Under the pieces are notes generated by a model. The model was not told the DNA's origin. It worked only from the letters and a program-made list of their open reading frames with translations, and did not search any database. DNA of 64,000 nucleotides, taken from contig NC_086108.1 of the NCBI RefSeq assembly GCF_963921235.1, forward strand, positions 75,642,001-75,706,000, written 5' to 3'. Made by a program: the position numbers and the translations under genes. The stretch is from Mobula hypostoma (lineage: Eukaryota). Shown here piece after piece: positions 3,373-60,944 of the stretch (positions within the stretch are counted from its first letter, which is position 1; each line of letters opens with the position of its first letter).

Positions 3373-3543
3373 ACGCAAAACAGATGATAAAAGGGAACAT
3401 GGTGGCTAGACAAGAAAGTGGACTTGGTACACAGGGTCTCATGGAATAGCAAGGTAACTTCAGAGCATCTAATGAGCCTACTTAGATTGGTTTCATTATG
3501 CTTGGCACAGACTTTGGGGGCAGAAAGGCAATATTCTATGCTC

Positions 3544-3746
3544 CAAGCAACATACATCAAAGTTGCTGGTGAACGCAGCAGGCCAAGCAGCATCTATAGG
3601 AAGAGGCGCAGTCAACGTTTCAGGCCGAGACCCTTCGTCAGGACTTCTTCCTATAGATGCTGCTTGGCCTGCTGCGTTCACCAGCAACTTTGATGTATGT
3701 TGCTTGAATTTCCAGCATCTGCAGAATTCCTGTTGTTTTTGTTTTT
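3544..3746. mobile_element. 203-bp fold-back mini Penelope-like insertion
   Basis: Perfect 61-bp inverted repeat 3544-3604 / 3646-3706; sequence matches the PLE termini at 58750 and 60660-60750; 14-bp TSD AATATTCTATGCTC at 3530-3543 and 3747-3760. Confidence 0.9.
3610..3645 (-). ncRNA. Minimal type I hammerhead ribozyme motif (PLE-associated)
   Basis: Minus strand reads AGTC-CTGACGA-AGG(GTCTCGG)CCT-GAA-ACGT-T-GACT: stem I AGTC/GACT, CUGANGA box, stem II, GAAA box, palindromic ACGU in place of stem III, GUU cleavage triplet. Confidence 0.8.
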
Positions 3747-5184
3747 AATATTCTATGCTCTATTATTTGAAGAGTAAGTTGGAATTTGGTTCAAATCCCA
3801 AAAGAACCACTAAACTAAAAGACATCTAATAGTTTGACTCCTCCTTTCTCAAAACTATGAATTTTAAGATGGCAATGAGGTATTATTTAAATATAAAATC
3901 CACTTTCTTTCTTGTTTCCTACTGTGCATCCTGCCCAATAATTAATAGGCTTCAGACTGCAAATTTTAAAAATCTACTTCAGAGCATTTATTTAGAAAAC
4001 TGTTAATCATTAAAAAAGATACAAAATATTTGTCATCAGGTAAAACAGGTAAAAAGATGTTCCACACTCAAGTAACGGTACTTAATTTCTCTCAGAAACA
4101 ATGACTGACATCTTACGAGAAGCAATAATTAAAGCAAGATGGCACTACACAGTACAACCAGTAACAAATTGCAGTCTACATATGCACTTGAGGTTACACA
4201 GGCTTTTATAAACACAGAGCTGAAATCTCCAAAATCAATATTAGTATAAAAATTCTCTAAACATTACTTTTATCTTGCCCTAATAGCACAACATATGATG
4301 GTAGGAGCTCCCATTGACACTATAGATTTATTGGATTCACAAAAAATTGAATTTATTAAAAGCCTCTATGAAAATACATTTTCTGTTTGATCAAAACATA
4401 AAAGGAAAATTATAAGCTAAATGAATACCATCTTAAAATATATTGCCAGATTTGGATAACTATTTTTATTTCTTTTTACCAAGTTATCCAGTATCTAAGA
4501 ACTGACAGGGTAGAAGGTGACTTACTACAAGAACCTGGCCATTTTCTCAGAAGGCAGCCATCAGTTGATCACAAGTTACTGTATATAGATTTGGATGGAA
4601 ATAATTCAGCCCGTGATCAAGCCTGCCTTCCTACAAAGTGAATGGGAAGGATATGGTCTTTATTTCACAATTCTTATTAACAGTTCTACTCCGATCATGG
4701 CAAGTTGTAGAGGGGGACACGGTGCCTTGTTCAAACCACCTGGTGATTTTACACACACCTAACTACTGAGACAAATGGAAAATATCAGTACAAAAGTCAA
4801 CAGAATGAGTGAAATAGTGACTGTAGGTTATATATTAATGAAGAATTAAGTTATTAAGTTGTCTGAGACATGATCAATGATTACACAAATTCTTACCTTT
4901 ACGAATTTCTGTTAAAAAATCTTTTTGAAATGCAGTATAAAATGAAAACAATTTATAAAAACTACAGAAATTATGTAAAACTTTGGCATTTGTTCTCCAT
5001 GAGCAGATGAACTCCAATGGGCATAAATTAGTTGCGAATTTTACAAGGCAGTGAAGATATATGATCAAAAGATTGACTTTAACAAAACCAAATCCTTAGC
5101 GATGAAACAAATGTTTGGCCTTGATCTGAATTATCTGTAGATGTCAAAAAGTGAATGGTGAATGATTATCTGACATCAAGCCAA

Positions 5185-5316
5185 CTATGATGGCTTAATC
5201 GGAGCAGGACGTAAAAAATTATCCATTGAGAGCTGTCGTCCACTCAAGTCTTTTGGTGCTCTGTGTTTCCTTCCATTTCGTTCCTTTCCAAGATTTTTCA
5301 TGCCACACTTGCCACC
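5185..5316 (-). CDS. MUTYH: MUTYH last coding exon (GGKCG...[17 protein letters not shown])
   Basis: ctctgcag acceptor; PIP-box-like [11 protein letters not shown] stop at 5187-5185. Confidence 0.9.
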   Translation of the reverse strand, partial: GGKCGMKNLGKERNGRKHRAPKDLSGRQLSMDNFLRPAPIKPS

Positions 5317-11300: not shown

Positions 11301-14300
11301 ATCCCAGAAACAGGGTGCATAAGCAATTTCTGTCTTTTATACAACTGTTAGAATGCTCAGGAGAGGTGGACAAGTATCATTGCTTTGAAATGCAACACCA
11401 GACAATAGCTTTAAATAACAGTCCCGCTGGAACCGTATTTTAGAAGCAGTGTACCAGTATAAACACACTAACATATAGAACATCTTGTGTAACTGACTGG
11501 GGATGAATTATAGACAAATAATTTCTCTCTCCTCCATTCCCAGTCCCCAGCTTGCCGAATAATTTTCAGTTGACGATAGATACCAGTGCTGGGTCTCTGA
11601 ACAAGGAAATACTCCTCTGCATCTTTGTTATCCCTCTTCCGTGTCACCACACAGGTCAGTGTGCGCTCTATTCGTGGAGGCTTTTTTGTAGGTTTCCTTG
11701 GATAATTCATAACTCCAAGATCGCTGTCCCAGGGTTCTTTGTCAGGCAAACATAGAGGGCAGTTTCCTCCACCACCTGCAACGTTAGGCAGAAACACTCA
11801 TCTTACTTTATCTGATATTCACAAAAGCCCTGTTTTGCAGCAGTATTGGACACTAATGTCCTCTGACACAAACTTGTAGGACTGAGGGGTGGGAGGGTGG
11901 ATCAAAGTCAACCACATTGCCAGGGCTTGGACCAAGCAACAGAAAGCTGCCTCAGAAAGTGTTTAATTCAAACAATTCCTGCCATCCTTGCTCCCAGAGT
12001 TGTGAAGATTGTGTGCCAATGCTTTCACTCCCACAGAACAACATGGAGGGATCTGCAAGGATAATTTCTTTACAATTCTCCAACTGTTGCATTTTTGATC
12101 TGTGTCTGAATAAAAAACCCACAGGATTTTCCTCTAAGTAGAGAAAAAGAATATTTGAAATTACAATCAGAGGACAAAACAAACACTTCTTATGTCTACA
12201 ATATTTGTGGAGGTGATAAAATATTTATGAAATGCAATAACCTCATCTCCCACAATCCCCAATGCATTGTCAATCTAATAAACTGTACATCATTTCTGGA
12301 CTAATTACTGATAATTCTTACCACACTCTTCAATGTCTGGGGTGGAGGAGGTCTTTGAAGCAGTGATACCTGGCAGTTTCTTTGAGACCATTTCCTGTTC
12401 CTTTATAACCTGAAAAGGGCACATATGCCAATGATAAGGAGACCTAATGCACCCTCAACTTCCCTTTACTGACCAGCTTTCTCAGATTTAGGACATCTTT
12501 CAGCATTTTACAACTATTTTACTACTTCTGAACTTTGGTTACCATTGTAATGCAGGAAATTACAACATAGTGGTAACTACGCTGCAGCAGTCCATGGCAT
12601 TTCCTATTCACTATTAATTATTTTCCACCTCTCCCTGCCTACCTCGTTGTACACTTTTAGAAAACAATAGTTTCCCTGAGGATTTTAAGCAGCTTAGAGT
12701 TTCAAAATTTTGTTTTCACATGGATCACTAACCTGTGCAAACCTAAAGGTCAAAGCTGCTCAAAGCTAGGAAATGGACAGATTTTCAACTTTTTTGTCCA
12801 GGAATAATTTTAATTCAGGGTTGCTGCTTTGTAGAGGTAAACGCCAATGTCCGTCAACTGTACGAATACTGAACCCCACTCTCAGCAATTCATCGACACA
12901 ACACATCAGACTGAGAAACTATTAACACTTAGCTTAGCCACTTGGATAATTGTATCATTCGCAGTTTTTAAGAACCCAAAATAAAGTGGAAGATGGATGT
13001 ATCAAGAAGGCAAGTTGTATCAAGGATAGGAAGCTGGGTCTGCTGTGAGATTTAGCAAGTTTTGAAGGTTATGTACGGCATTGGGAGGAATTATTTCAGA
13101 ATGTGGGAATATTAGAAAGGGCAGGCTGATCCAGAAGGAAATATCAAGCCTGACAGAGATAAACGTCAGCTGCAGTTGAGATGAAGAAACACTGTGAGAT
13201 GGGGCTGGGTAAAGCTGGATGAGAAACTGGTTGAAGGATATGGTGGCAGCATCAACATTTGAATTACGCAGGGATTCTTCAGCTGTATTGAGTTGATATT
13301 AACACTCAAGCTTACAAGTGCCTACAGTTGTCAACCAGCTGATTATATATAATAGTTCTTCACATGCTGTTTATCTACCACTGTCAAACCAACCATCTTT
13401 ATCACATACTCAAAACTTACCTGTTGGTAAGCTCTACAGTAGGTCTGAACAGGGCACTCTGCACAAAGGGGAGCTTTGGGAGTGCAGACAGTCGCTCCCA
13501 GCTCCATCATAGCCTGGTTAAAGTCTCCTGGTCTAACCAAATCCACCAAGGTATTAGCCAATATCCTATAATGCAACAATACAAAGATGAACGCATTTCA
13601 GATATATATATTTTGTGCCTTCTCTACTGTGATACAATCTTTTACAGAGTGGCTAATTTTTCAAAAACTGTTAATTTTTTTTCCAAACACCTAAGATTTG
13701 TGCAGTCTTAGTCTGAATTACTGGCCGAGTGTTTTTCAACCAGTTTCCAAACTAAATAATATGACAGCACTACAGTTGTCGCCACTTCAGTGCTCCGTGG
13801 ACTCCTAACTTCAGGCAGCGTCTGTGCAGAGCCCACTCTCAGTGTAGGATTCCCCTGGCACTGGGTTTCCTGACACGTGCCAAAGATGCACAGGGAGATA
13901 AACTGGCTCCTGAAAATTTCTCCTTAATGGAGCTTAGTGGCAAGGAGAATCAAAAGGGAGTTGATGGGCATGTGTGAGATAGAATAAACTGCAGAAATAA
14001 AAGGAGGAGCACTGAGACTAATAGATAATGCGCACAGGAGGCAGCTTGGGCCCAATGGAACAAATAGTCTTCTAGAGGACAAGTTAAGTTGATTTGAAAC
14101 ATACAAAATGCATAATTGGTTCTGTTAAACTCATGAACCAATTTAGTTTATTCTGACCCTTTTCAAGGGAAGTCAATTGAGAAAATAACTGCAAACACTT
14201 GACCCTAAAGAACTTCTGCGACTGATCTCCAACAACAGCCATTGTGATGAGTTAGGCTCCAGCCGCTATAGATTTTTTTTTCTCTGATCCCAATTAATAT

Positions 14301-17300: not shown

Positions 17301-20300
17301 TTCATTTCCCAATACCAGATCAAGTACAGCCTCTCCTCTTGTAGGCTTATCTACATATTGTGTCAAGAAACCTTCCTGAACACACCTAACAAACTCTACC
17401 CCATCTAAACCACTCGCTCTAGGGAGATGCCAATCAATATTTGGGAAATTAAAATCTCCCACCACAACAACCCTGTTAATATTACACCTTTCCAGAATCT
17501 GTCTCCCTAGCTGCTCCTCGATGTCCCTGTTACTATTGGATGGTCTATAAGAAACACTCAGTTATTGACCCCTTCCTATTCCTAACTTCCACCCACAGAG
17601 ACTCCACAGACAACCCCTCCATGACCTCCTCCTTTTCTGCAGCTGCGACACTATCTCTGATGAACAGTGCCACTCCCCCACCTCTTTTGCCTCCCTCCCT
17701 GTCCTTTCTGAAACATCTAAAGCCTGGCATTTGAAGTAGCCATACCTGCCCCTGCACCATCCAAGTCTCTGTAATGGCCACAACATCATAGCTCTAAGTG
17801 CTGATCCACGCTCTAAGCTCATCCGCTTTATTCATAATGCTCCTCGCATTAAAACAGACTCATCTCAAACTATCAGTCTGAGTGCGTCCCTTCTCTATCA
17901 CCTGCCTATCCTCCCTTTTGCACTGTCTCCAAGCTTTCTCTATTTGTGAGTCAACCTCCCTTTCCTCCGTCACTTCAGTTCGGTTCCCACCCCCCAGCAA
18001 TTCTAGTTTAAACTCTCCCCAATAGCCTTAGCAAACCTTCCTGCCAGGATATTGGTTCCCCTCGGATTCAAGTGCAACCCGTCCTTTTTGTACAGGTCAC
18101 ACCTGCCCCAAAAGAGGATCCAATGATCCAGAAATCTGAATCCCTGCCCCCTGCTTCAATCCCTCAGCCATGCATTAATTCTCCACCTCATCCTATTCCT
18201 ATACTCACTGTCACGTGGCACAGGCAGTAATCTCGAGATTACTATCTTTGAGGTCCTGCTTCTCAACTTCTTTCCTAATACCCTGTAGTCAGTTTTCAAG
18301 ACCTCCTCCTTTTTCCTACCTATATCGTTGGTACCTGTATGTATCACGACCTCTGGCTGTTCTCCTTCGCACTTCAAGATATCGTGGACCCCTGTATCCA
18401 GCTCGGCTGAGAGTCTTTTACGACGAAGGGACAAAAACTTACGCTACGGTGGAGGAGGCAACGTCGGACCTGGCGGACCGGGGACTACCTATTAAAGTTA
18501 TCACCGGAGTCGCTAGTGGAGGGGATTCGGCAGAAGTCGTGGCAGTTAGTGGGGCGAGGACGCTCCACTCGAACCAGAGTGTCAAACTACAAGGAAAAGC
18601 TGCAAATATTCAGACGCGAATGTACAGACAATACAGATTAATTAAGAGAAATGACTGAAAAGAGTAAATCGGACTTAAAAGTAAAATGAAAACTGGTAAC
18701 TGAAAATAATCTAGGCGGAATAACTTGAATGATAGCAATATGGTCGAGACATAAATAGGAGAAAATTCTCTATGATTATTCAAACTGCTGAGGGCCCTCT
18801 AACACAGGGTGAAGATAGAGGTTATCCCTCTGAACTGAGGCGGGTCGGTGCTCAGGCCTCACTGTGGGAAGTCGGGAAAAATTTTCAAATGTTATACGTT
18901 CAGAAATGTCTAGGGTGTGGTTATATGTCTTGGTTTACTGTTGAGAAGGGATTGCTTACTGTTTGGTTAGAAAAGGAGAGTGCTTTTTTTCTACTAGAGA
19001 AAAATGCAAACTGAATTGGTAAAAATAATTTCCTATAATGTTAATGGGGTTTTGAATCCAATTAAAAGAAATAAGATTATGTCTAAATTGAAAAAAGAGA
19101 GGGCACAAATAGCTTTCCTCCAGGAAACACATATGAGCCAATCTGAACATGGAAAATTAAAAAGAATGGTCTTTAAGCATGTATTTTATTCATCATATAA
19201 ATTGAGTCACAAAAGAGGGGTAGCTACTTTAAATCAAGTACTGTTAATTATGAACATATTTCAGAGACTAGAGACAAAGAAGGATGGTTTGTAAAAATCA
19301 CAGGAAGAATAGAAGGTACAGAAATAACATTGCTGAATGTTTATGCTCCTCCAGGTAGTGAATGGTCATTTTATAGACACATTTTTGACCTAATGGTCAG
19401 TTCTCGAGGGGTAGTAATTTGTGGAGGGGATTTTAATATTAGATTAAATCCTATATTAGATTCTTCAAGAATAGTTACTCAGAATAAACCTCTGACTCGG
19501 AAAGTGAATTCATTGATGGAGGAGTTGGGAATTATAGATGTCTGGAGGGAATTACACCCTACTAGTAAAGATTATACATATTACTCTTTCCCTCTTTCAG
19601 CCTATTCAAGGATAGACTATTTCTTTATCTTTAATACAGATAGACTCAGGATAAAAAACTGTAATATTGCAACAATTGATCTGTCGGATCATAGCCCAGT
19701 CTCTATGTCTCTAATCCTGGAAAGGAAAATGAGGAAAACACTATGGAGGCTAAACTCACATATACTTAATAACCCAAAAGTAATGGAGAGATTAAGGGGA
19801 GAAATCAAAGAATATCTAGACCTTAATGACACGGGAGAAACATCACCAGTGATTTTATGGGATACATTGAAAGCTGTACTGAGAGGGAAAATTATTTCCA
19901 TTACTACTCACATGAAAAAAATCAATGCACAAAAATTAGCAGACCTTCAAGGAAAATTAAAACAACTTCAAGTTGTAGATAGCAACAAAAGTAATTCAAA
20001 TCGAAAACAGGAAATTAGGAAATTGCAAAGTGAAATTGATGATATTTATACGTTGGAAACTCAAAGAAATTTTCTTTACCTGAGACAAAAGAATTATGAA
20101 GTAGGAGGTAAATCAGCTAGATTATTAGCATATAAATTACGAAAACAACAAGCAGACAATACAATTCATAAAATAAAGAATCCAAAGACAAAGCTTGTGG
20201 AGAGTACAATAGGGAAAATTCAAGAGAGTTTTGAAACGTATTATCGAGAGCTGTACTCCCAACCCCGGGCCCCCAATGAGCCCTATATAGACAGTGTATT

Positions 20301-23300
20301 GAATTTTTTAGATCTACCTAAACTTACAGATTTACAAAATGAAAGTTTATTAGAACCAGTAACTGTCAAAGAACTGAACGTGACCATCTCTAGGTTAAAG
20401 GCTGGAAAGTCCCCGGGTTCTGATGGGTTTACCTCAGAGTGGTACAAGTCCCTGAAGACACAGTTAGCCCCATTACTACTTAACACCTTTAATTGGAGCT
20501 TGCAGAGAGGAGAAACTCCACCTTCCTGGAGAGAAGCGATTATTTCAGTTATTCCTAAAGAGGGTAAAGATAAACTAGAATGTGGCAATTATCGGCCAAT
20601 TAGTGTTCTTAATTTAGATTACAAACTATTTACATCTATATTAGCGCACAGATTGGAAAAGCTTTTACCTGGCCTAATCCATTTAGACCAGACTGGATTT
20701 ATTCAACAAAGACAAACACAGGACAACATAAGGAGAACTCTGCACATATTAGAACAGGTTAATAAGAACGAGACAGAGACAATGGTAGTAGGATTGGACG
20801 CTGAGAAAGCTTTTGATTCGGTTAGTTGGGCATTCCTATACAGAGTGTTAGGAAGATTCGGCTTTCAAGAAAGGTTTATTAAAGTAATTCAGACTCTGTA
20901 TGACAGCCCAACAGCCCGAATTAAGATAAATGGGGACCTCTCTGACTCCTTCATTATAGAGAGGGGCACTAGACAGGGATGCCCAATTTCTCCTCTCCTT
21001 TTTGCGCTATATATTGAACCACTTGCCCAACTAATAAGACAGAGCGAAATCGTAAAAGGTATCAAGGTGGCAGGGATTGAACAGAAAGTGGCGTTATTCG
21101 CAGATGATGTTTTGGTCTATCTGAGTGAACCAGAAAAATCATTTATAGGATTGGTTACACTGTTGGATGACTTTGGGAAAATATCAGGTTATAAAATAAA
21201 TGTAAAGAAAACGCAGGTTATGTCCCTAAATTATACACCATCCAAAAAATTGCAGGATACATACGATCTTAAGTGGGAAGCTAAATCATTAAAATATTTA
21301 GGAATAACCCTGCCGAAGGATCTTTCAACACTGTCACAGGTAAATTATGGGCCATTAATCTCAGAGATAAAAGCAGATATGCATAGATGGAATCTTATCC
21401 CCTTTTTAAGTTTAAATTCAAGGATAAATACTATAAAAATGAATATTCTTCCTCGGTTATTATATCTTTTCCGTACTTTACCAGTGGAGGTGGATGATAA
21501 TCAATTCAGGGAATGGGACAAATGGATTTCCCGCTTCATTTGGCAAGGAAGGAAATCTAGAATTCGATATAACACCTTACAGTTAGGGAAGGAAAGAGGA
21601 GGTATGGTTCTTCCTTGCCTGAGAAACTATTTTTATGCCTCACAGATAACCCCTCTGTTATATTGGTGTAATAGGGAATATAAGGCTAGATGGAAGGAAA
21701 TAGAATTTGGATTAGTTGACAGTTTTCCTCTTCAGGCCTCAATAGCTGATAAAGGATTGATGGCCCAGTTGGAAAAATTTAATAATGCTTGGATAAATCT
21801 TACATTAAAAGTATGGCAGAAGGTGGTTAATTCATGTGGAATTAATAACATGCTAAAACTCTTTAGATGGTGTGCATATGATACTGAATTCCTTCCCAAC
21901 AGAGGAGTAAAAGATTTGAGCTATGGATAAAGAAAGGTCTTACAACCTACCTCTCATTTATAGATAAAAGAGTATTACAAAGTTTCCAAATCCTGCAGGA
22001 CAAACATGGCCTAGAACATAATGACTTTTTTAGGTACCTTCAAATACGAAACTATGTTAACCAGAGTTGTAGATATACAGACCTATCAACAGTAGAATTA
22101 GAATTTTTCAAGATTCTGAATTCGGCTTGCAGTTCAATACCTAGTAAATCAGTTTCTCGCCTATATAATGCACTCTCCCATGCTAAAAATGTAAATACAC
22201 TGTATATTAAAGAGAAGTGGGAGAAAGAAGCGGAGTTGGTACTTTCAGAGGAGGCTTGGGGGAAAATCTGCAGCTTTCAATGGTCCTCGACTAATTCTTT
22301 GACTTGGAGAGAACATTGTTGGAAAAACATTATAAGATACTTCAAGACCCCATATCAGGAAAAATATAAAGATACAAATGTGATGTGTTGGAGAAGGTGC
22401 GGCTCCAAGGAGGCAAATCATTTTCATATTTTCTGGGATTGCCCTAAATTAAGTCTATTTTGGGAAGGTATTCATAGAACATTAGTTAAGGTATTAAGGT
22501 CCCAGATACCTCTGAACTTTGAGACGCTCTATTTGGGGCATGTATTGTTCCTTGAACAGAAGGAAGATATAAAGTTGCTGCAGGGAAATCAATCACTAGA
22601 AAATGGCTAAATCCAATACCACCTACATTAGAAGATTGGTACGAAATTATCTTGGAAATATTTAAAATGGAAAAGTTGACCTACTCCCTGAGAACTCAAA
22701 AAGAAACATTTTATCAAATCTGGAATAAATGGATTGAATATATAACCCCAATGCGAGCAGACTTTAGATGACTCTCCTAATGATTTATATTGCTCTTCTC
22801 ATCAACACAGTAATATTGCTAACGTAAGCACCCCTAGTCTAAATGTTTGTTGTTTTTTTTTGGAAAATAGAGAATTAACACAAGTAAAGGGAAAGATTTG
22901 GGAAAGGGATAAAAAAAAAATGAAAAAATTAAGTAAATAAGTACATAGGGATTGGATAATTATGTCTGTGGGCAGGAACAAATTGGGATATAAACACCTA
23001 CAATGGTTGGTATATAGGCTTGTATACAACATTTTGGACCAGTGGAAATGGTCCAGAAGGGTTGTATGGAAACTATTATTACCATTTTTCTTAACAACTA
23101 ATTTCATTACTTAGCCTAATAGGTTAGATTTACCACAGTACATAATTATCTATTTAAATGTTTATTTTGCTTTTATATCATCTCAATGTGTACTTAAGAA
23201 TGTATAAATAATTGTAGTTTTATACATATAAAAAAATGGAAAAGGTTATATGTGTGAAAAAAGTACATGATAATTGTGAACTCCTTATCCAAATAAAAAT

Positions 23301-26300
23301 AAAATTAAAAAAAAAAGATATCGTGGACACGATCAGAAACATCCCGCACCCTGGCACCTGGGAGGCAAACTACCATCCACGTTTCTTTCCTGCATCCACA
23401 GAATCGCTTATATGAGCCCCTAACTATAGAGTCCCCTATCACTGCTGCCATCCTCTTCCTTTCTCTACCCTTCTGAGCCACAGGGCCAGACTCTGTGCTA
23501 GCAGCACGACCACTGTTGCTCCCCCCCGGTCGGCCGTCCCCCCCAACAGTACTCAAGCAGGAATACTTATTGTTAAGGGGGACAGCCACTGGGGTACTCT
23601 CTAGTACCTGCTTCTTGCCCTTCCCTCTCTTGACTGTTACCCACTTCTTTGTCTCCTGTGGTCCTGGAGTGACCACCTGCCTATGGCTACTCTCGATCAC
23701 CTCCTCACTCTCCCTGACCAGACAAAGGTCATCGAGCTGCATCTCCAGTTCCCTAATGCGGTCTCTAAGGAGCTGCAGCTCGACACACCAGGTGCAGATG
23801 TGGTCGTCTGGGAGGCCGGGAGGCCAGCAGTCTCCAGGACCTCCCACATTTGACACCGAGCGCAGAAAACCAGCCTCACAAATACTTTCTGTCTTTATTT
23901 TAAACAGATAACCTACCTGGCCTCGACCCCTTATCGCCTAAGCCCCGTTGAACCAAAGCCTTCCTACTCTGTCTCCCACTACTCCGTCACCCACTCCTCC
24001 AATGCCCGCTCTGTAAATCTGTCTCCCTTTTAAACTCTTCCTGCTGTTCTCACTGGCTGACCTCCAGGCGCTTGCGCAGTCATGCCCCGTTCAAACCGCT
24101 GAAGAAATAACCTACCATGCCACATCAAGATCCATGCTGCAGGACTGAAGGACCCACCGTACTCCAAGAACAGGTTGAACAAGGGAGCTACAGCACAAAG
24201 TTTAGCAGTGAGGTCTATAAACAGATAATGAACACTGACGGAAGCACCAGTGATATAGATACGAATACCTGTCTGTTGAAAATTCAAGGCTGAGTCCAAG
24301 ACATCATTATTCCTTTATCTCGTTGTGTGATCTACTTGTAGATTTTCAGTGACAGATCAACAAACATTGTAGTTTGCCTCTCAAAAGATCCTTCTAATGC
24401 CAGCAATGGAGTAAATATGATCCACGCTGAAACAATGTATTCATCATGTTAAGTGTCCCGGTCAGTTTTCTGATGGGCATGATTTTACCCCAAAATGATC
24501 GCTACTGCAATTTGGCACAAGTAAAATAACTGCTACACATAATCTGTGCAAGTAGATCCAATTTTTAGACTTTTGCCCTTTAACCCCCTTACTATGCTAC
24601 ATGAATAGCTGAAAGAAAAGTGCACTTCTTACCAAAGGGATTCAATCACTGATGGGCTGGTGCAGTCTGCTCCAATTGCTCTCATACGACACAGAACTCG
24701 TGTTACATTCCCGTCAACCACACCAGTTACCTATAAGCAGCAAAAAGCTAGTCATGACTAAAACAATCATATTTCAATCTATTAAAAGAATACATAATAT
24801 ATAATGATTTGGAATCATTGTCACTGGATTTTCTATTCTCTAAAATGCGATTTCAAAATATAAATTTTCTTCTCAAGCATTTTCAAGGTCTTCTTGTGCA
24901 CATTGTTCTTATATTTAGATAATCTTAAACTTTTGCTCAGTTGACTAGAACTTAAAAAAAAATTCTGGACAATTATTCTCCTGGCCTTATCTTTGAAAAA
25001 AATTAATTTGAAGCATAGCAAATAAGCACCTATGAAACAACAATCATGCCAACTAAAATATTACCCTCATTTCTCTTTTCTTTCCTCTACCATCTCTAGT
25101 TTCATCCTCAACTTTAATTTTGAGGCCCTTAGGGGAAATAAAACAACCAAACAGCTTAATGGTTATTGTCTTCTCGTACTGTGTGAATCAACACAACGTT
25201 CTACAATAATTTACTTAATCAACACAGACTGTGCCCAGATTACAACAGGGTTCCAATCCTGAGAACTGTTCAAAAACTGAACTCTCTGTAAGTTGGAAAT
25301 GAACAAATGCTGGTTATGGGTGGGGGGGGGGGGGGCAGTCATGAAACAATTGTGACAGGAGAGCAACCAGGCTTGAAAAGAGCAGCTGGCAGCCACTAAC
25401 ACAATGAGCGAGCAAGCAAATCCACTCAGCTCTACTCGGCTCAAACCAGCCCCTGACTGTCGTGGCTCAGTGGATGGCTCACAGAAATACCCCATTCTCA
25501 CCCAGCAGAAAATGACAGCAGCCTCACAGCAGCAAGCAAATACATTTTTCCAGTCCCCCAAACATCTGTTGTTTTTCCATAAATAGGATGTTCGGAGCTT
25601 TGGGAGGGCTAGTTATTGAAAATGGAATTGATCACTTCTGATGAGTTCATGGCAGAATATTGCTCCATCTCAGAATTCGGAATATGCCAAGTATGCCCGC
25701 AGGAAAATGAACCTCAGGGTTGCGTACAGAGACATATACGAGGAGTGATTGATAAGTTTGTGGCCTAAGGTAGAAGGAGTCGATCTTAGAAAACTAGCAC
25801 ATTTATTTTTCAACATAGTCCCCTCCTACATTTACATACTCAGTCCAGTGGTCGTGGGGCATACAGATCTTGGACCTCCAGAAAGTGCCCACAGCACGAG
25901 TGATTGATAAGTTTGTGGCCTAAGGTAGAAGGAGATGAGTTATACAGCAAACATGAGGAAATCTGCAGCTGCTGGAAATTCAAGCAACACACACAAAATG
26001 CTGGTGGAAGGCAGTAGGCCAGGCAGCTTCAACAGGAAGAAGCACAGTCGACGTTTCAGGCTGAGACCCTTCATCAAGACTAACTGACGGAAGAGATAGT
26101 ATGAGATTTGAAAGTGGGAAGGGGAGGGGGAGATCTGAAATGATAGAAGACAGGAGGGGGAGGGATAGAGCTAAGAGCTGGAAAGTTGATTGGCAAAAGG
26201 GATACAAGGCTGGAGAAGGGAGAGGATCATGGGACGGGAGGCCTAGCGAGAAGAAAGGGGGAGGGGAGCACCAGAGGAAGATGGAGAGCAGGCAAGGAGT

Positions 26301-29300
26301 AATTGTGAGAGGGACAGAGAGAGAAAAAAAGAGAGAAAAAAAATAAAAAATAATAAATAATAAATAAATAAGGGGTGGGGTGAGAATGGTAGGAGGGGCA
26401 TTAACGGAAATTAGGGAAGTCAATGTTCATGCCATCAGGTTGGAGGCTACCCAGATGGAATATAAGGTGTTGTTCCTCCAACCTGAATGTGGCTTCATCT
26501 TGACAGTAGAGACGGCCATGGATAGACATATCAGAATGGGAATGGGACGTGGAATTAAAATGTGCGGCCACTGGGAGATCCTGCTTTCTCTGGCGGACAG
26601 AGTATAGGTGTTCAGCGAAACGGTCTCCCAGCCTGCGTCAGGTCACGCCAATATATAGAAGGCCGTACCAGGAGCACTGGACATAGTATATCACACCAGC
26701 TGACTCACAGGTGAAGTGTCGTCTCACCTGGAAGGACTATCTGGGGCCCTGAATAGTGGTGAGGGAGGAAGTGTAAGGGCATGTGTAGCACTTGTTCCGC
26801 TTACAAGGATAGGTGCCAGGAGGGAGATCGGTGGGAAGGGATTGGGGGGGAGGGACGAATGGACAAGGGAGTCGCATAGGGAGTGATCCCTGTGGAAAGC
26901 AGAAAGGGGGGGGGAGGGAAAGATATGCTTGGTGGTGGGATCCCATTGGAGATGGCGGAAGTTACGGAGAATAATATGTTGGACCCGGAGGCTGGTGGGG
27001 TGGTAGGTGAAGGCAAGGGGATCCCTATTCCTAGTGGGGTGGCGGGAGGATGGGGTGAGAGCAGATGTGCATGAAATGGGAGAGATGCATTTGAGAGCAG
27101 AGTTAATGGTGGAGGAAGGGAAGCCCCTTTCTTTAAAAAAAGGAAGACATCTCCTTCACCCTGGAATGAAAGGCCTCATCCTGAGAGCAGATGTGGCGGA
27201 GGTGGAATTGCGAGAAGGGGATGGCATTTTTGCAGGAGACAGGGTGGGAAGAGGAATAGTCCAGGTAGCTGTGAGAGTCCGTAGGCTTATAGTAGGCATC
27301 AATAGACAAGCTGCCTCCAGAGACAGAGACAGAAAGATCAAGAAAGGGGAGGGAGGTGTCGGAAATGGACCAGGTAAATTTGAGGAAAAGGTGAAAGTTG
27401 GAGGCAAAGTTAAGTTAATTCAACGAGCTCAGCATGCGTGCAGGAAACAGCGACAATGCAGTCGTCGATGTAGCGAAGGAAATGTGGGGGACGGATACCA
27501 GAATAGGCTTGGAACATGGACTGTTCCACAAAGCCAACAAAAAGGCAGGCATAGCTGGGACCCATACGGGTGCCCATGGCTACACCTTTAGTTTGGAGGA
27601 AGTGGGAGGAACCAAAGGAGGAATTATTGAGAGTAAGGACTAATTCTGCTAGACGGAGCAGAGTGGTGGTAGAGGGGAACTGGTTAGGTCTGGAATCCAA
27701 AAAGAAGTGGAGAGCTTTGAGACCTTCCTGGTGGGGGATGGAGGTATATAGGGACTGGACATCCATGGTGAAAATAAGGCGGTGGGGGCTAGGGAACTTA
27801 GAATCATTGAAAAAATCCAGAGCGTGAGAAGTGTCACGAACATAGGTAGGAAGGGATTGAACAAGGGGGGATAAAACAGTGTCGAGGTATGCAGAAATGA
27901 GTTCGGTGGGGCAGGAGCAAGCTGAGACAATGGGTCTACCTGGACAGGCAGGTTTGTGGATCTTGGGTAGGAGGTAGAAACGGGAAGTGCAGGGAGTGGG
28001 AACTATGAGGTTGGTGGCAGTGGATGAGAGATCCCTAGAGCTGATAAGGTTGGTGATGGTGTGGGAGACAATGGCCTGGTGCTCCTTGGTGGGGTCATGA
28101 TCGAGGGGTAAATAAGAGGAGGTATCCGCTAGTTGTCACTGTGCCTCAGCACGGTAGATGTCAGTACGCCAGACTACAACAGCGCCCCCCTTATCAGCGG
28201 GTTTTATAGTAAGGTTAGGATTAGTGCGGAGGGAGTGGAGAGCAGAGCATTCCGAAGGAGTGAGGTTGGAATGGGAACAAGGTGCGGTGAAGTCGAGACG
28301 GTTGATGTCCAGTTGGCAGTTAGCAATAAATTGATCCAGAGCAGGCAGAAGACCAGAGCGGGGTGTCCATGAAGAGGAGGAGGGTTGAAGACAGGAGAAG
28401 GGATCATCAGTGGGGGTAAGAGAGTCCTTCCCGAAGAAGTAGGCTCGAAGACGGAGCCGCGGAAGAAGAGTTCAGCATCATGGTGTACGCAGAACTTGCT
28501 GAGGTGTGGGCGAAGGGGGACAAAGGTAAGGCCCTTACTGAGGACACAGCGCTCTGCCTCAGAGAGTGGGAGGTCAGAGGGGATAGTAAAGACCCAGTGC
28601 GGGTGAGAGCTGGGAGCAGAAGGGGGAAGGGGGAGGCTGGCGGTGTCAGTGGAGAGTGGAGGGTTGGGGTGAGAGGAAGATAGAGCCTCTGAGGGCCCAG
28701 GAGTTGACGATGGGATCTGAGGGAGACGGGAGTCACAATAGCAGCACGTGAAAACCCAGCCTGGAGTTGCAGTTGGAGGTTGCGCAATTGCTTTGAAAGT
28801 GTCCATGGTTGTTGGAACCCGCATTATCTGAGGGAGATGGGTGTTTGAGGTTAACAACTCATCAGTTAATAACTTATCAGGGGTGATTGATAAGTTTGTG
28901 GCCTAAGGTAGAAGGAGATGAGTTATTAACTTCAAACTTTCTGCATAATCACTCAAAGAGTTGAACTACACGTGCATGTAATGAGAGCTGTATAACTCAT
29001 CTCCTTCCACCTCAGGCCATGAACTTATCAATCACCCCTGCTGTGGGCACTTTCTGGAGATCCAAGATCCGTATGCTCCACGACCGCTGGACTAAGTGTG
29101 TAAATGTAGGAGGGGACTCTGCTGAAAAATAAATGCGCTAGGTTTTCTAAAATTGACTCCTTCCACCTTAGGCCACAACCTTATCAATCAATTCTCCTAT
29201 GTACTTTGATACCAAATTTACTTTAACATTTGAATTAAAATACAAAAAAATTAAACGATTAACAAGGAGATGCATATTTAAAGAATACACTATAATAAAC

Positions 29301-38300: not shown

Positions 38301-38508
38301 TCTCAAACAAGCAAGTCTTGACTAGTTTATCAAGCAGCTTAAGGTTGGATTTCTTTAACAAGCTATTAACTTTAGTGACTAGTAAACATGGGCCATTCAG
38401 TAAGCAGTATTCTATGTAACTCTCCACCCAAGTTCAACATTATGCACCTCCAAATTTGGTTTTACAAATCCAATCGTCAAAATGGGAACATTTTGTCCAC
38501 TCTGGACA

Positions 38509-55400: not shown

Positions 55401-58189
55401 GATGGTGGTGGTGCCAGTAGTGGCATGAGACTATGTTCTTGGGGCAACCTTGGTCAAGTGATCAGATGTTTTCTACTGAAGTGACTTGACAGTGGATCAT
55501 ATCAAGTGAAGGATTTATGTTGCACAAAGTAAATTTGTGTTGGAAAGAGGAATTGAAAGAGGGTATTGATCCATGGCTGCTGATTAAGATATTGAGGTTC
55601 ACAATGGTTAGGCTGATCCATCATGGCCAGAGCTGTAAGCAGCTACCATTAACACTCTATGGAGGTAGCTGGTGCTGTTTTACCAGCTGTTATTGGGATT
55701 TGAAAATCACACACTATAGTGTTCTCTTTTGTCCATGGCCTTCTGTCCTCTCCTATTAGATTTCCCCCTTTCCAGCCCTTTATTTCTTTCACCAATTGAC
55801 TTCCCAGCTCTTTACTTCACCCCTCCCCTTCTCCCAGTTACGGGTAACACCTACTACCTTGTACTTATTCCTCTGACTTCTAATTTCTTTTCCCCATCCT
55901 GATGAAGGGTTTCAACCCAAAACATTGACTGTCTGTTCATTTCTGTTGATGCTGTGTGGCCTGCTGAGTTTCTCCAGCGTTTTGTGTATATTATTTTGAT
56001 TTTCAGCACCTGCAGATTTTCTCTTGTTTGTGTCCAAATATAGTGTTGCCAGCACTTGTCAGATATTTCCAAAGTGTCAGGATTTTCATGATTCAGTTTC
56101 CCATTATTTTCTGTAACAGAACTTTACAATGTATTTTAAAATGGAATATTTGCACCAGGGTGATGTTGTAATGTGGTTATGGATATTTATAATCCATATT
56201 GTATGTTAACTAATCGGCTAATTCCCACTATAATTATTTCAGCCAGGTAGTGCATATTTGAGCCAGGTATACAATCTCACGCTGCTATGCATGGATGAAT
56301 ATATAATTGAGCCACAATCTGTTCAGTTCCTGGTCCAGCATGGCTTTGACTTCAATAAACAGTATGCTAAAGGGATTCCATACCAGAGGGGGAATGACAA
56401 GGTAACAGCAGACTTCATTCAACTCTTATTTTTCATCTGTGCAACATTTAATGTTTCAGAATTTGTTTCTCCCACCTTTCTCCTTCCATGCTGTTTCAAT
56501 TGCATTGCAAGTGTAGACTTCACCGATTTCTGTGAAATCTACTTATTGCTGCATTTGATGCTGGTTAGATGGAAGTCTTAAGCAGTCCCTTGGGATCAAG
56601 GATGACATGCTTCGAAGTCTGGTTTTGTAGTTTCTGAGAGGCCAATGAGGTTATTGTAGGAACAAAAGAACTTTTTCATAAATGGAGCAGGTTGATGGGA
56701 GCAAGTAAGTCTGTAATTTGTGACCTGGACTCTGTGTACTCCCAGTGCATGACCTCTGTATTCTCAGTGTCATTCCTAATGCCCCTTCTCCACTTTGAGT
56801 AGTCATGGGCCAGAAATACTCATGAGTAGGTGACAATGTTACATTTCTTCTGCGAGGTTTTGATCGTATCCTTGGATATTTTCCTCTGTCCACCTGATAA
56901 GCTTTTTTATGAACTCAGAACAGTGTGTCTGATTCAAACATTGTGTAGGGCATGCAACGGAGAACGTCGGCTGAACAGAACGTAAGCAGGGCCTCAATAC
57001 TGGGATGTTGCCCTGGCCAAGGGCACTGATTTTGGTTCTGTTATCCTTGTGATGAATTTGGAGGATATTTGCAGAGAGAGCATTGCTGATATGTTTCCAA
57101 TGCCTTAAGCATGCATCTTGCAAGTGATCCCAATCTTAGCAATATAGGAGGGTAGATATCACTGCCTAATAGACCATGAATATTGTGACAAGTCTGTGGT
57201 ATTGATTCTTCAAATGCCCTTCCCCACGACCGAAGAGTATGCTGGGTCACAAGGTGGTAGTGAATTTCACTGACTGCTTTCATCTGATATATGAGGAGAA
57301 GTGGTCTTTGCTTCCCAGGGTTTAACTTTAAATCTTTATTATAGAAGGACAATGTGATATGGCGGAGGCAGATTGACATAGGACTTATGTTTTTTATGCT
57401 TTCACTGAAACATACAATGGTTGGAGCTTGACACAAATACAAATATCATCTACATACTACAGCTTGACCAAAGCTTGGGTAATTATAGGTCTCGAGTGCA
57501 GTTCTGAGGATTAGCTCCATTCTGTAGTACAGTGCAGCTCTATATAATCCCATTGTCATTTACCAGACTTCCTTAGAATGTATCCCACTTCAGATACTGT
57601 TGTCAGTTGTGATCAATCACTAAGCTAAACCATGCTTACGTTCAAAGTTCTGCATTCTTTGGGCTGTGGCATATTGTTGGAATGAAGGATCTCAAAGAAC
57701 GTGTCTGAGACCCATTGACTATTCGTAGTTTTTGAAGGTTTGTGAAGTTATAAACAGACTTGTAACATAACGCTTAGGTCCAGGGTGCTGTCCAAATAAT
57801 ATCTATAAAGGGTCCATTTAACGATAAAAGTAAAGGATCCCTTCATTCCAATAAGTGTGCAGACTTGAAAGTAAATAACTTAACTCAATTGCTTAAACAA
57901 TTGGTTACCTTTTTACATTTCATTTACAGCTTAATGAATGTCGTGGTCAGAACATCAGAGCTCTCTTTCTAGAAATCATTCAGGCAAAGAAGCCTTTAAT
58001 TCTTCATAATGGACTAATTGATTTGGCATTCCTGTACCAGTGTTTTTATGCTCACCTACCAGACCAACTTATGACCTTCACAGCTGACCTATCTGAGATG
58101 TTTCCAGCTGGGATTTATGATACCAAGTATGTCTCAGAATTTGAGACTCGCTTTATGTCGTCCTACTTGGAATATGCCTACAAAAAGTG
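52354..58189 (+). CDS. TOE1: TOE1 (target of EGR1, DEDD/CAF1-family snRNA 3' exonuclease), 5' part; continues beyond the window
   Basis: Exons 52354-52464, 52548-52588, 53035-53131, 56243-56401, 57930-58189 splice in frame. Motifs: VVDVHxxNFKExWP, ALDT|ELSGLG (DEDD Asp/Glu), [39 protein letters not shown]. Confidence 0.96.
52548..52588 (+). CDS. TOE1: TOE1 41-nt exon ([13 protein letters not shown])
   Basis: cccag / gtgagt boundaries. Confidence 0.95.
53035..53131 (+). CDS. TOE1: TOE1 exon ([32 protein letters not shown])
   Basis: tcacag / gtaagg boundaries. Confidence 0.96.
53192..54628 (+). mobile_element. CR1 LINE, 5'-truncated RT
   Basis: 352-aa RT ORF at 53227-54285; (TTATATGG)n tail. 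Confidence 0.95.
55700..56030 (+). mobile_element. Degenerate PLE terminus with eroded hammerhead
   Basis: CTGATGA-AGGG...CCC at 55899 with the GAAA box mutated; followed by GATGCTG...CCTGCTGAGT...TGCAGA as in the other PLE ends. Confidence 0.6.
56243..56401 (+). CDS. TOE1: TOE1 exon ([16 protein letters not shown]...GNDK)
   Basis: tttcag / gtaaca boundaries; 159 nt in frame. Confidence 0.95.
56580..57700 (-). mobile_element. RTE-clade LINE remnant
   Basis: Frame-broken [10 protein letters not shown]...[11 protein letters not shown], resembling the RTE ORF C-terminal region. Confidence 0.5.
57930..58189 (+). CDS. TOE1: TOE1 exon ([15 protein letters not shown]...HNGLIDL...YDTKY...AYKK)
   Basis: tttacag / gtaagt boundaries; 260 nt. 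Confidence 0.96.
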
Positions 58190-58807
58190 GTAAGTAGTAT
58201 GAGATGTTCTTAAAACATAGAACATAGAATAGTACAGGCCCTTTGGCCCACAATGTTGTGCCAACCTTCAAACCCTGCCTCCCATATAACCCCCCCAACT
58301 TAAATTCCTCCATGTACCTGTCTAGTAGTCTCTTAAATTTCACTAATGTATCTGCCTCCACCACTGACTCAGGCAGTGCATTCCACTCACCAACCACTCT
58401 CTGAGTAAAAAACCTTCCTCTTATATCCCTCTTGAACTTCCCACCCCTTACCTTAAAGCCATGTACTGAGCAGTGGTGCCCTGGGGAAGAGGCGCTGGCT
58501 GTCCACTCTGTCTATTCCTCTTAATATCTTGTATACCTCTATCATGTCTCTTCTCATCCTCCTTCTCTCCAAAGAGTAAAGCCCTAGCTCCCTTAATCTC
58601 TGATCATAATCCATACTCTCTAAATCAGGCAGCATTCTGGTAAATTTCTTCTGTACCCTTTCCAATGCTTCCATATCCTTCCTATAGTGAGGCAACCAGA
58701 ATTGGACACAGTACTCCAAGCGTGGCCTAACCAGAGTTTTATAGAGCTGACACATAAAAGTTGCTGGTGAACGCAGCAGGCCAGGCAGCATCTCTAGGAA
58801 GAGGTGC

Positions 58808-58843
58808 AGTCAACGTTTCAGGCCGAGACCCTTCGTCAGGACT
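58808..58843 (-). ncRNA. Minimal hammerhead motif, intact core
   Basis: AGTC-CTGACGA-AGG(GTCTCGG)CCT-GAA-ACGT-T-GACT, identical to 3610-3645. Confidence 0.8.
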
Positions 58844-60615
58844 AACTGAGGGAAGAGTGAGTAAGGGATTTGAAAGTTGGAGGGGGAGGGGGAGATCCAA
58901 AATGATAGGAGAAGACAGGAGGGGGAGGGATGGAGCCAACAGCTGGACAGGTGATAGGCAAAAGGGATACCAGAGGATCATGGGACAGGAGGTCCGGGAA
59001 GAAAGACAAGGAGGTGGGGGTGACCCAGAGGATGGGCAAGGGGTATATTCAGAGGGACAGAGGGAGAAAAAGGAGAGTGAGAGAAAGAATGTGTGTATAA
59101 AAATAACTAACAGATGGGGAACGAGGGTGGGGTGGGGCATTAGTGGAAGTTAGAGAAGTCAATGTTCGTGCCATCAGGTTGGAGGCTATCCAGACGGAAT
59201 ATAAGGTGTTGTTCCTCCAACCTGAGTGTGGCTTCATCTTTACAGTAGAGGAGGCCGTGGATAGACACGTCAGAATGGGAATGGGATGTGGAATTAAAAT
59301 GTGTGGCCACTGGAAGATCCTGCTTTCTCTGGCGGACAGAGCGTAGGTGTTCAGCAAAGTGGTCTCCCAGTCTGCGTCGGGTCTTGCCAATATATGAAAG
59401 GCCACATCAGGAGCACCTGACGCAGTATATCACCCTACTTTCACAGCTATCTGGACTATTCCTCTTCTCACCCTGTCTCTTGCAAAAACGCCATCCCCTT
59501 CTCGCAATTCCTCCGTCTCTGCCGCATCTGCTCTCAGGATGAGGCTTTTCATTCTAGGACAAGGGAGATGTCTTCCTTTTTTAAAGAAAGGGGCTTCCCT
59601 TCCTCCACTATCAACTCTGCTCTTAAATGCATCTCCCCCATTTCACGTACATCTGCTCTCACTCCATCCTCCCACCACCCCACTAGGAATAGGGTTCCCC
59701 TGGTCCTCACCTACCACCCCACCAGCCTCCGGGTCCAACATATTATTATATTATTCTCCGTAACTTCCGCCACCTCCAACGGGATCCCACCACTAAGCAC
59801 ATCTTTCCCTCCCCCCCCCCCGCATTCCGCAGGGATCGCTCCCTATGCAACTCCCTTGTCCATTCGTCCCACCCATCCCTCCACACTGATCGCCCTCCTG
59901 GCACTTATCCGTGTAAGCGGAACAAGTGCTGCACATGCCCTTACACTTCCTCCCTTACCACCATTCAGGGCCCCAAACAGTCCTTCCAGGTGAGGCAACA
60001 CTTCACCTGTGAGTCGGCTGGGGTGATGTACTGCGTCCAGTGCTCCCGATGTGGCCTTTTATATATTGGCGAGACCCGACGCAGACTGGGAGACCGCTTT
60101 GCTGAACTCCTACGCTGTGTCCACCAGAGAAAACAGGATCTCCCAGTGGCCACACATTTTAATTCCACATCCCATTCCCATTCTGACATGTCTATCCACG
60201 GCCTCCTCTACTGTAAAGATGAAGCCACACTCAGGTTGGAGGAACAACACCTTATATTCCGTCTGGGTAGCCTCCAACCTGATGGCATGAACATAGACTT
60301 CTCTAACTTCCGCTAATGCCCCACCTCCCCTTCGTTCCCCATCTGTTACTTATTTTTATACACACATTCTTTCTCTCACTCTCCTTTTTCTCCCTCTGTC
60401 CCTCTGAATATACCCCTTGCCCATCCTCTGGGTCACCCCCCCCCCCCGCTTGCCTTTCTTCCCGGGCCTCCTGTCCCATGATCTTCTGGTATCCCTTTTG
60501 CCAATCACCTGTCTAGCTCTTGGCTCCATCCCTCCCCCTCCTGTCTTCTCCTATCATTTTGGATCTCCCCCTCCCCCTCCAACTTTAAAATCCCTTACTC
60601 ACTCTTCCTTCAGTT

Positions 60616-60651
60616 AGTCCTGACGAGGGGTCTCGGCCTGAAATGTCGACT
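60616..60651 (+). ncRNA. Minimal hammerhead motif
   Basis: AGTC-CTGACGA-GGG(GTCTCGG)CCT-GAA-ATGT-C-GACT; GUC triplet, palindrome changed from ACGT to ATGT. Confidence 0.75.
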
Positions 60652-60944
60652 GCACCTCTTCCTAAAGATGCTGCCTGGCCTGCTGCATTCACCAGCAACT
60701 TTTATGTGTGTGGCTTGAATTTCCAGCATCTGCAGAATTCCTGTTGTTTGCGTTTTATAGAGCTGCATCATTACTTCGCGACTCAAACTCTATCCCTCAA
60801 CTTATGAAAGCTAACACCCCATGAGCTTTCTTAACTATCCTATCTACCTGTGAGGCACCTTTCAGGGATCTGTGGACATGTACCCCCAGATCCCTCTGCT
60901 CCTCCACACTACCAAGTATCCTGCCATTTACTTTGTACTCAATG

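Follow-up and report, generated by a model that had tools for sequence, protein, structure and literature searches.

A 203-bp unit in the window (the whole 64-kb stretch of Mobula hypostoma DNA that was analysed) is very probably a young, head-to-head pair of scraps from the terminus of a Neptune-type Penelope-like element (PLE), made by reverse transcription on both target strands from two start sites, likely along one RNA. The architecture of such insertions, an inverted copy with a tail, is already published (Craig 2021; PMC8557442), and the locus is ordinary as a single case; as a class, the insertions have modest mechanistic value. The strict pairing of start sites and the stop hot spot reported below were not found in print in the main texts of the open-licence literature, in which no published paper on sharks, Neptune elements and inverted copies was found either. 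Citations refer to individual passages of the papers concerned.

Structure and age of the insertion

The two arms (3544-3604 and 3646-3706) measure 61 nt each, are 100% complementary and are spaced by 41 nt, in agreement with the exact hairpin of the original prediction. The unit is bounded by a 14-bp target-site duplication (TSD), which is the sole direct repeat at its ends and is present only twice in the window when both strands are scanned. In a related species with a divergence from the window of about 1.3% (for contig X8, 25 letters out of ~1,940), a DNA-like contig (X8) and an RNA-like contig (X13) join 3529 directly to 3747. The unit is therefore one young insertion, and both the single arrival inferred from the exact duplication and the empty site to be sought in relatives were recovered. 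The coordinates of all features are given in Table 1.

Table 1. Features of the insertion and its surroundings. Negative numbers are arm positions, counted from the 3' end of the natural 3-kb PLE copy L136.
Feature	Position	Strand	Remarks
Left target-site duplication, AATATTCTATGCTC	3530-3543		Single copy at the empty site of the related species
Arm 1: PLE terminus, from internal start -33 back to -134	3544-3645	-	102 nt compared with L136
Minimal type I hammerhead motif	3610-3645	-	Motif call; helix I has its 5' end at 3645, which is also the arm-end hot spot
Arm 2: PLE terminus, -93 to -1 (tail start)	3646-3738	+	93 nt, identical to L136
PLE ORF codons 1-14 (MLLEFPASAEFLLF), ATG at -42	3697-3738	+	Comparison with tandem copies
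Eight extra bases, TTGTTTTT	3739-3746	+	Comparison with L136
Right target-site duplication, AATATTCTATGCTC	3747-3760		Direct repeat
Last coding exon of MUTYH (likely), stop TAG at 5187-5185	5185-5316	-	RNA-like contigs depart from the genomic sequence at 5318

Arm 1 differs from L136 by one mismatch, C>T in the cleavage triplet. Arm 2 is divided into a portion that pairs with arm 1 (3646-3706) and a one-sided tail (3707-3738; 32 nt, plus 8), so that the stem represents the stretch copied twice (61 bp) and the loop the stretch copied once. The eight extra bases are likely a slipped repeat of the final tail bases. The unit had been described as free of coding sequence, which is not entirely accurate, as the end of arm 2 encodes the first 14 codons of the PLE ORF.

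Parent element

Matches to the unit are found at three further positions in the window, and two of these lie next to RT or GIY-YIG coding sequence. Genome-wide, the hammerhead 16-mer has 81,109 exact matches (13,748 + 67,361), several related families included, and a 35-mer of the subfamily has 20,294. Three pieces of the parent ORF were submitted to domain searches, and RVT_1 exceeded the cut-off in one of them (window piece 27410-28132, E 8.2e-9). The 693-aa ORF of locus L149 matched RVT_1 (E 3.9e-5) and, weakly, GIY-YIG (E 0.012), both below the cut-off, and the third piece matched no family in this search. The translation contains a C-x-x-C inside the GIY-YIG core, together with VIYCVRCSRCGLLYIG, and a CKRNKCYTC linker (CX4CX2C) is found in identical or near-identical form in seven ORFs. 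A CX2-5CxxC linker between RT and endonuclease marks Neptune and also occurs in Nematis, and is given as absent from Penelope and Poseidon (PMC8557442, passage on the linker). The linker thus supports, at the level of sequence, a Neptune-type PLE as the parent, the source already named in the original prediction.

The terminus sits directly upstream of a unit, in tandem, in 6 of 29 long copies and hence doubles as the leader of the next unit, whose ORF opens at the ATG at -42; in the tandem copy L287, the frame from this ATG exceeds 600 residues. The features by which EN+ PLE insertions are recognised were all found, namely RT and GIY-YIG with core cysteines, a hammerhead-bearing pLTR, and an inverted copy with a one-sided tail and a TSD.

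Further PLE copies were noted in the window. At 58736-60765, the same PLE has a longer two-armed insertion, with an inverted arm from -726 to -43, a forward arm from -1305 to -1 and a 14-bp duplication, GTTTTATAGAGCTG. A one-armed 2.9-kb copy in a MUTYH intron (25900-28926; 86% to L136) has an unusually long flanking direct repeat of 44 bp (at 25900 and 28883) and sits within another repeat with inverted-looking ends. A related PLE has left a small two-armed stump at 55897-56033 that is old and decayed (73% identity; TSD not recovered). Elsewhere, -929 is joined to -2752 at an identical internal inversion junction in loci L098 and L109, at a distance of 1.4 Mb from each other, which suggests that a rearranged two-armed copy was itself duplicated or retrotransposed.

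Pairing of start sites

To sample insertions regardless of their junction, the 35-mer of the subfamily was used and its first 100 matches were taken, which cover the first 12.9 Mb of contig C1 and one subfamily. They yielded 84 insertions, with the partner rows of one insertion (L104, L114, L124) and a local duplicate (L111) removed; L182 and four cut-off loci were excluded from the two-arm counts. Thirty-four insertions are two-armed, 45 one-armed and 5 cut off or ambiguous, with TSDs mostly of 12-17 bp. Of the one-armed insertions, 23 begin with the tail and 22 at an internal site that lies about 35 nt further in. In two-armed insertions, the tail start is combined with the internal start in 30 cases and two internal starts are combined in one, with three ambiguous; tail-internal pairing thus accounts for 30 of the 31 classifiable cases (p 1.5e-8 against 50:50).

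The 5' ends of paired arms are correlated (rho 0.54, n=30), lying at most 20 nt apart in 18 of 30 pairs as against 10.2 after permutation, and beyond the stop hot spot 4 of 7 pairs end within 13 nt of each other. Five pairs with equal ends rest on overlapping alignments (gaps of -14 to -22), and microhomology blurs junction positions by a few bases. Between the two arms of an insertion the difference is 0.59 letters, compared with 1.66 for arms of different insertions (22 of the 30 loci scored). A lockstep model, in which loop length equals the offset between the start sites, was rejected, since it fits only the window copy and 2 of the 30 pairs.

An inverted, 5'-truncated copy with a one-sided tail of 30-40 bp has been described in PLEs (PMC8557442). 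In vitro, the protein of an anole PLE, a Poseidon element, cleaves and extends both target strands, the tail being bounded by the two internal sites at which copying starts; the substrate is uncleaved RNA, the protein is predicted to dimerise, and in the passages concerned the start site did not differ between strands (PMC11167929). The window copy could accordingly be envisaged as follows. The target would be nicked on both strands and subsequently duplicated over 14 bp, and a dimeric protein would prime both target strands on one RNA, using two start sites about 35 nt apart, the tail (-1) for arm 2 and the internal site (-33) for arm 1. Copying would halt where the RNA begins, at about -133, which may be a transcription start or an end linked to a splice acceptor; alternatively, it may halt at a fixed block to the enzyme. 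Host repair would then join the two cDNA ends head to head.

Stop hot spot at the hammerhead edge

Within the sample, 30 of the 75 arms at risk end at -121 to -150 (1.54 per 100 nt), compared with 9 of 84 at -80 to -120 (0.28 per 100 nt) and 4 of 45 at -151 to -180 (0.31), so that the end rate is about five times that of either flank (p 2e-12). Genome-wide, 6,557 matches leave the consensus at -131 to -146, 2,672 at -140 to -155 and 1,022 of 38,437 anchors at -96 to -111, counts which are only rough because the filters pass different shares. Among the matches listed for -131 to -146, about 68 of 100 end at -130 to -134, with the mode at -133 (by eye), this filter favouring one junction type (~12 rows). 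For the first 29 loci of these matches the peak is weaker, 13 ending at -130 to -134 when determined by script. Of 47 terminating rows from related families, 44 end at -130 to -136 (by eye; the remaining rows belong to another family that passes the filter). A hot spot at the cleavage site (-102), hinted at by a few arms, was discarded, as ends are spread over -96 to -111 and no peak is present at -102 among the matches listed (~7 of 100, by eye). A second peak at -148/-149, considered as a branch point or initiator, was likewise set aside as modest (~20 of 100 among the matches listed, by eye).

The loop of the window copy consists of the hammerhead because an arm that ends at -134, the first base of helix I, is joined to a shorter partner; the motif thus likely came to lie in the loop because copies often stop at its edge. 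In each of the five sequence groups seen, helix I is immediately preceded by a pyrimidine tract and YAG, and the abutting site also matches YYANWYY. As judged from sequence, the 5' edge of the hammerhead is a conserved site resembling a splice acceptor or initiator. In the Drosophila virilis Penelope element, an intron extends as far as the 5' end of helix I (PMC4209133), and an intron and an internal promoter have been described for Penelope (PMC2377424).

About 16 of 100 arms ending at -134 among the matches listed go on with a second copy of the bases in which they end (by eye), as expected at the end of a template. One of six whole-unit copies starts at -134 and the other five extend further upstream, so that -134 is not the sole start of the RNA. 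The 100 rows listed contain no common continuation past the acceptor such as a spliced first exon would leave. In a search-enriched set of 105 arms ending at -130 to -140, no distal antisense continuation was present at the junction: 60 ends are followed by the partner arm, 20 by the TSD, 23 by unassigned flank, one by local sequence and one by a distal match 12 nt away. Copying of a spliced first exon past the acceptor was rejected, no intron-less continuation having been found in these two sets. The stops are probably caused by the 5' end of the RNA, and a block to the enzyme is a possible, less favoured cause.

Short insertions of this kind, an estimated several thousand in the genome, might be frozen products of a reaction in which both strands are primed by a PLE dimer that uses two fixed sites on a single RNA, the 5' end of this RNA commonly lying at the site abutting helix I and not at the ribozyme cut; we regard this proposal as plausible though somewhat short of probable. 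If true, it would account for the inverted arm, for a tail on one side only and perhaps for the fact that PLEs never lose their introns; an RNA end should then be mappable between -132 and -134. As a class, such stumps provide inexpensive statistics on how PLEs make inverted ends and tails, and the in vitro system already established would allow the start pairing, the correlated arm ends and the stop hot spot to be tested one by one.

The same hammerhead core, preceded by a pyrimidine tract and CAG before helix I, was also observed in at least four other PLE groups (L038-L064, L333-L362), which display the same pile-up of arm ends. In runs X7 and X17, contigs with loose ends depart from the hammerhead at helix I (window 3646-3647) and read ...AAG before TCC (sense), which resembles a spliced upstream exon and could equally reflect genomic junctions.

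Hammerhead motif in the loop

Read on the minus strand from 3645 to 3610, the motif comprises AGUC (helix I), CUGACGA, AGGGUCUCGGCCU, GAAA, CG and UU/GACU, with helix III replaced by self-complementary (palindromic) ACGU. The CUGANGA and GAAA boxes, helices I and II, an NUH site and the palindromic positions of the minimal PLE-type motif are all present, and the predicted minimal hammerhead with its intact boxes and GUU site was thereby recovered. The assignment is by motif, since no Rfam family reached its gathering score anywhere in the window. Helix I has a pairing probability of 0.85-0.87 in the folded minus transcript; the predicted monomer fold pairs GACG of the catalytic box with CGUU at the site. 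The GUU site, which constitutes the sole mismatch of the window copy to the young natural copy L136, is in the minority among the family loci examined (14 of 188 motifs, versus 152 of 188 with GUC). Single minimal PLE hammerheads did not cleave in the in vitro experiments of PMC4209133, and the hammerhead of the anole PLE cleaves once the protein has been added (PMC11167929). The lone hammerhead in the window, having no helix III and a GUU site, is predicted to be unlikely to cleave, and we propose that it is a passenger in the insertion.

Recurrence of the unit and alternative origins

The exact 3645/3646 junction occurs four times in the 3.48-Gb genome, which matches neither the unique truncation nor the family between which the original prediction had proposed to decide by this count. 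Diagnostic letters assign the four copies, in either arm, to no fewer than two subfamilies: in two copies both arms are of an older subfamily, and in another both arms depart from the window copy at a diagnostic site, so that the junction arose more than once. Among the best 30 look-alikes, junctions vary and each copy has its own flanks; the best are 88-98% identical across the whole unit. Perfect stems are frequent, the arms being identical over 45 nt in 13 of 22 scored look-alikes, a set chosen by similarity that includes the window copy. An excess of 'AGGACT+TC' and an asymmetry of AAC and GAC between the arms of look-alikes were dropped as artefacts of selection by similarity to the query. 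Small hairpins, with both arms at most 165 nt from the 3' end, make up 24 of the 84 sampled insertions, and 5 of these 24 carry the hammerhead once only, like the window copy. Extrapolation from 24/84 gives an estimated several thousand small hairpins in the subfamily alone. By these comparisons, the unit is a recurrent class of product, neither a one-off nor a clonal family.

Two origins had been offered for the unit, and the extreme truncation of an inverted PLE structure agrees with these data, whereas a small, non-autonomous, retrozyme-like hairpin family copied whole by the PLE is largely refuted by the junctions and highly improbable. Hairpins of similar size are admittedly numerous, their closest members remain alike over the full unit, and animal retrozymes are reportedly derived from PLE pLTRs (bioRxiv 10.64898/2026.07.22.740005). 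The exact junction is, however, confined to four places in at least two subfamilies, the junctions form a continuum, the arms follow the letters of the autonomous subfamily, and the same-strand tandem hammerheads that are the defining mark of active non-LTR retrozymes are lacking. The unit also departs from retrozymes in two defining respects (PMC7229834, PMC6155905), as it has neither direct tandem hammerhead units nor a fixed amplified unit. An origin from the same element by other chemistry, in which a single cDNA gives rise to the inverted arm by fold-back or template switching followed by an endonuclease cut, is unlikely. It would account for the near-identity of the arms of a single insertion, often with the same end position, and the passage of PMC8557442 that ascribes the tail to endonuclease resolution describes a route that could give the same geometry. 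A simple fold-back nevertheless cannot yield the window copy, because each arm holds sequence missing from the other (the tail is absent from arm 1, and -134 to -94 from arm 2), so that neither can be a DNA copy of its partner. Moreover, the longer arm may be of either type (tail arm in 12, internal arm in 13 and equal in 5 of the 30 pairs), 22 of the 45 one-armed insertions start at the internal site, and two start sites have been demonstrated in vitro for a relative (PMC11167929).

Comparison with known systems

The unit shares head-to-head termini, a one-sided tail, a TSD, a pLTR hammerhead and tandem full units with the EN+ PLE insertions of PMC8557442, and differs from them in its arms of only ~100 nt, which form a tight hairpin without an ORF body, and in the accumulation of arm ends at the 5' edge of helix I. 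PAc, the Poseidon element of Anolis carolinensis (PMC11167929), likewise has two starts bounding the tail near the start of the ORF and a hammerhead just upstream, and there is no sign in either case, as far as the cited passages extend, of cleaved RNA serving as template. PAc belongs to another clade, whereas the PLE in the window has the CX2-5CxxC linker; its ORF starts in helix II, as opposed to ~60 nt downstream of the cleavage site here; and the strict tail-internal pairing, obtained here from genomic copies, is unreported in those passages. The conserved boxes, short helix I, absence of helix III and palindromic positions 15.2-16.2 are shared with the minimal type I hammerheads of PLEs (PMC4209133), from which the window differs in having a single copy in a loop, no second same-strand motif and GUU in place of GUC. 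With D. virilis Penelope, in which the intron ends at helix I (PMC4209133), it has in common the pyrimidine tract and YAG at that position, here a putative acceptor. Animal non-LTR retrozymes (PMC7229834; bioRxiv 10.64898/2026.07.22.740005) are also small, non-coding, hammerhead-bearing, PLE-related and flanked by TSDs of >4 bp; they are direct tandem repeats with one hammerhead per unit and a circular RNA, in contrast to the inverted pair in the window with its one motif and no fixed unit.

MUTYH context

MUTYH is encoded on the minus strand, its exon at 13421-13561 matching adenine DNA glycosylases (E 4e-19); the remaining exons are presumed to belong to it from characteristic motifs. From the likely last exon (5316-5185), the distance is 1.43 kb to the element and 1.54 kb to the hammerhead, which confirms the predicted position on the sense strand about 1.5 kb past the stop codon. 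The RNA-like contig X5 (Mobula hypostoma) departs from the genomic sequence at the acceptor of the last exon and extends from 5318 to 3717, without differences, into the tail, and in the related species an RNA-like contig crosses the empty site as far as 3343; 'RNA-like' is a guess by software, none of these contigs being on record as RNA, and they carry neither strand nor level. Three RNA-like or unknown-type runs of Mobula hypostoma give no cover of 3378-3529, and a DNA run gives none either, so that the gap says nothing on read-through beyond the element. The RNA-like contigs support an extension of the MUTYH 3' UTR to the element, and shorter isoforms are likely, since five AATAAA motifs lie between the stop codon and the element.

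Read-through RNA had been expected to carry both the long stem and a cleavage site; the entry of an RNA-like contig into the element is in line with this, whereas functional cleavage is doubtful given the experiments in PMC4209133. An action of the insertion on MUTYH RNA, through editing or dicing of the stem or through cutting of the 3' UTR by the hammerhead with the help of PLE protein or a motif in trans, is distinctly unlikely. It would fit the contigs running from the last exon into the tail, the stability of the stem (fold of about -133 kcal/mol), the orientation of the hammerhead on the sense strand and the protein-assisted cleavage known for the anole PLE (PMC11167929). Against it stand the youth of the insertion, which is missing in the related species, the five preceding AATAAA motifs, a predicted fold that ties the catalytic box to the cleavage strand, the lack of helix III, the minority GUU site and the inertness of single minimal motifs in vitro (PMC4209133). 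Most likely, the insertion is neutral in a long MUTYH 3' UTR; an incidental effect of the stem, such as editing or a lower stability of the long isoform, is possible, and a selected role at MUTYH has no support. The locus also provides a dated, species-restricted 61-bp dsRNA stem in the long 3' UTR of a DNA-repair gene, with the empty-site relative as a control.

Two unrelated features of the window were also recorded. A MUTYH intron contains a 909-aa open frame for an endonuclease-RT followed by a frameshifted C-terminal part (19201-22610), which we take to be L1/Tx1-like. At ~38430-38480, a (GAT)n microsatellite is read as a long aspartate run in the ORF listing.
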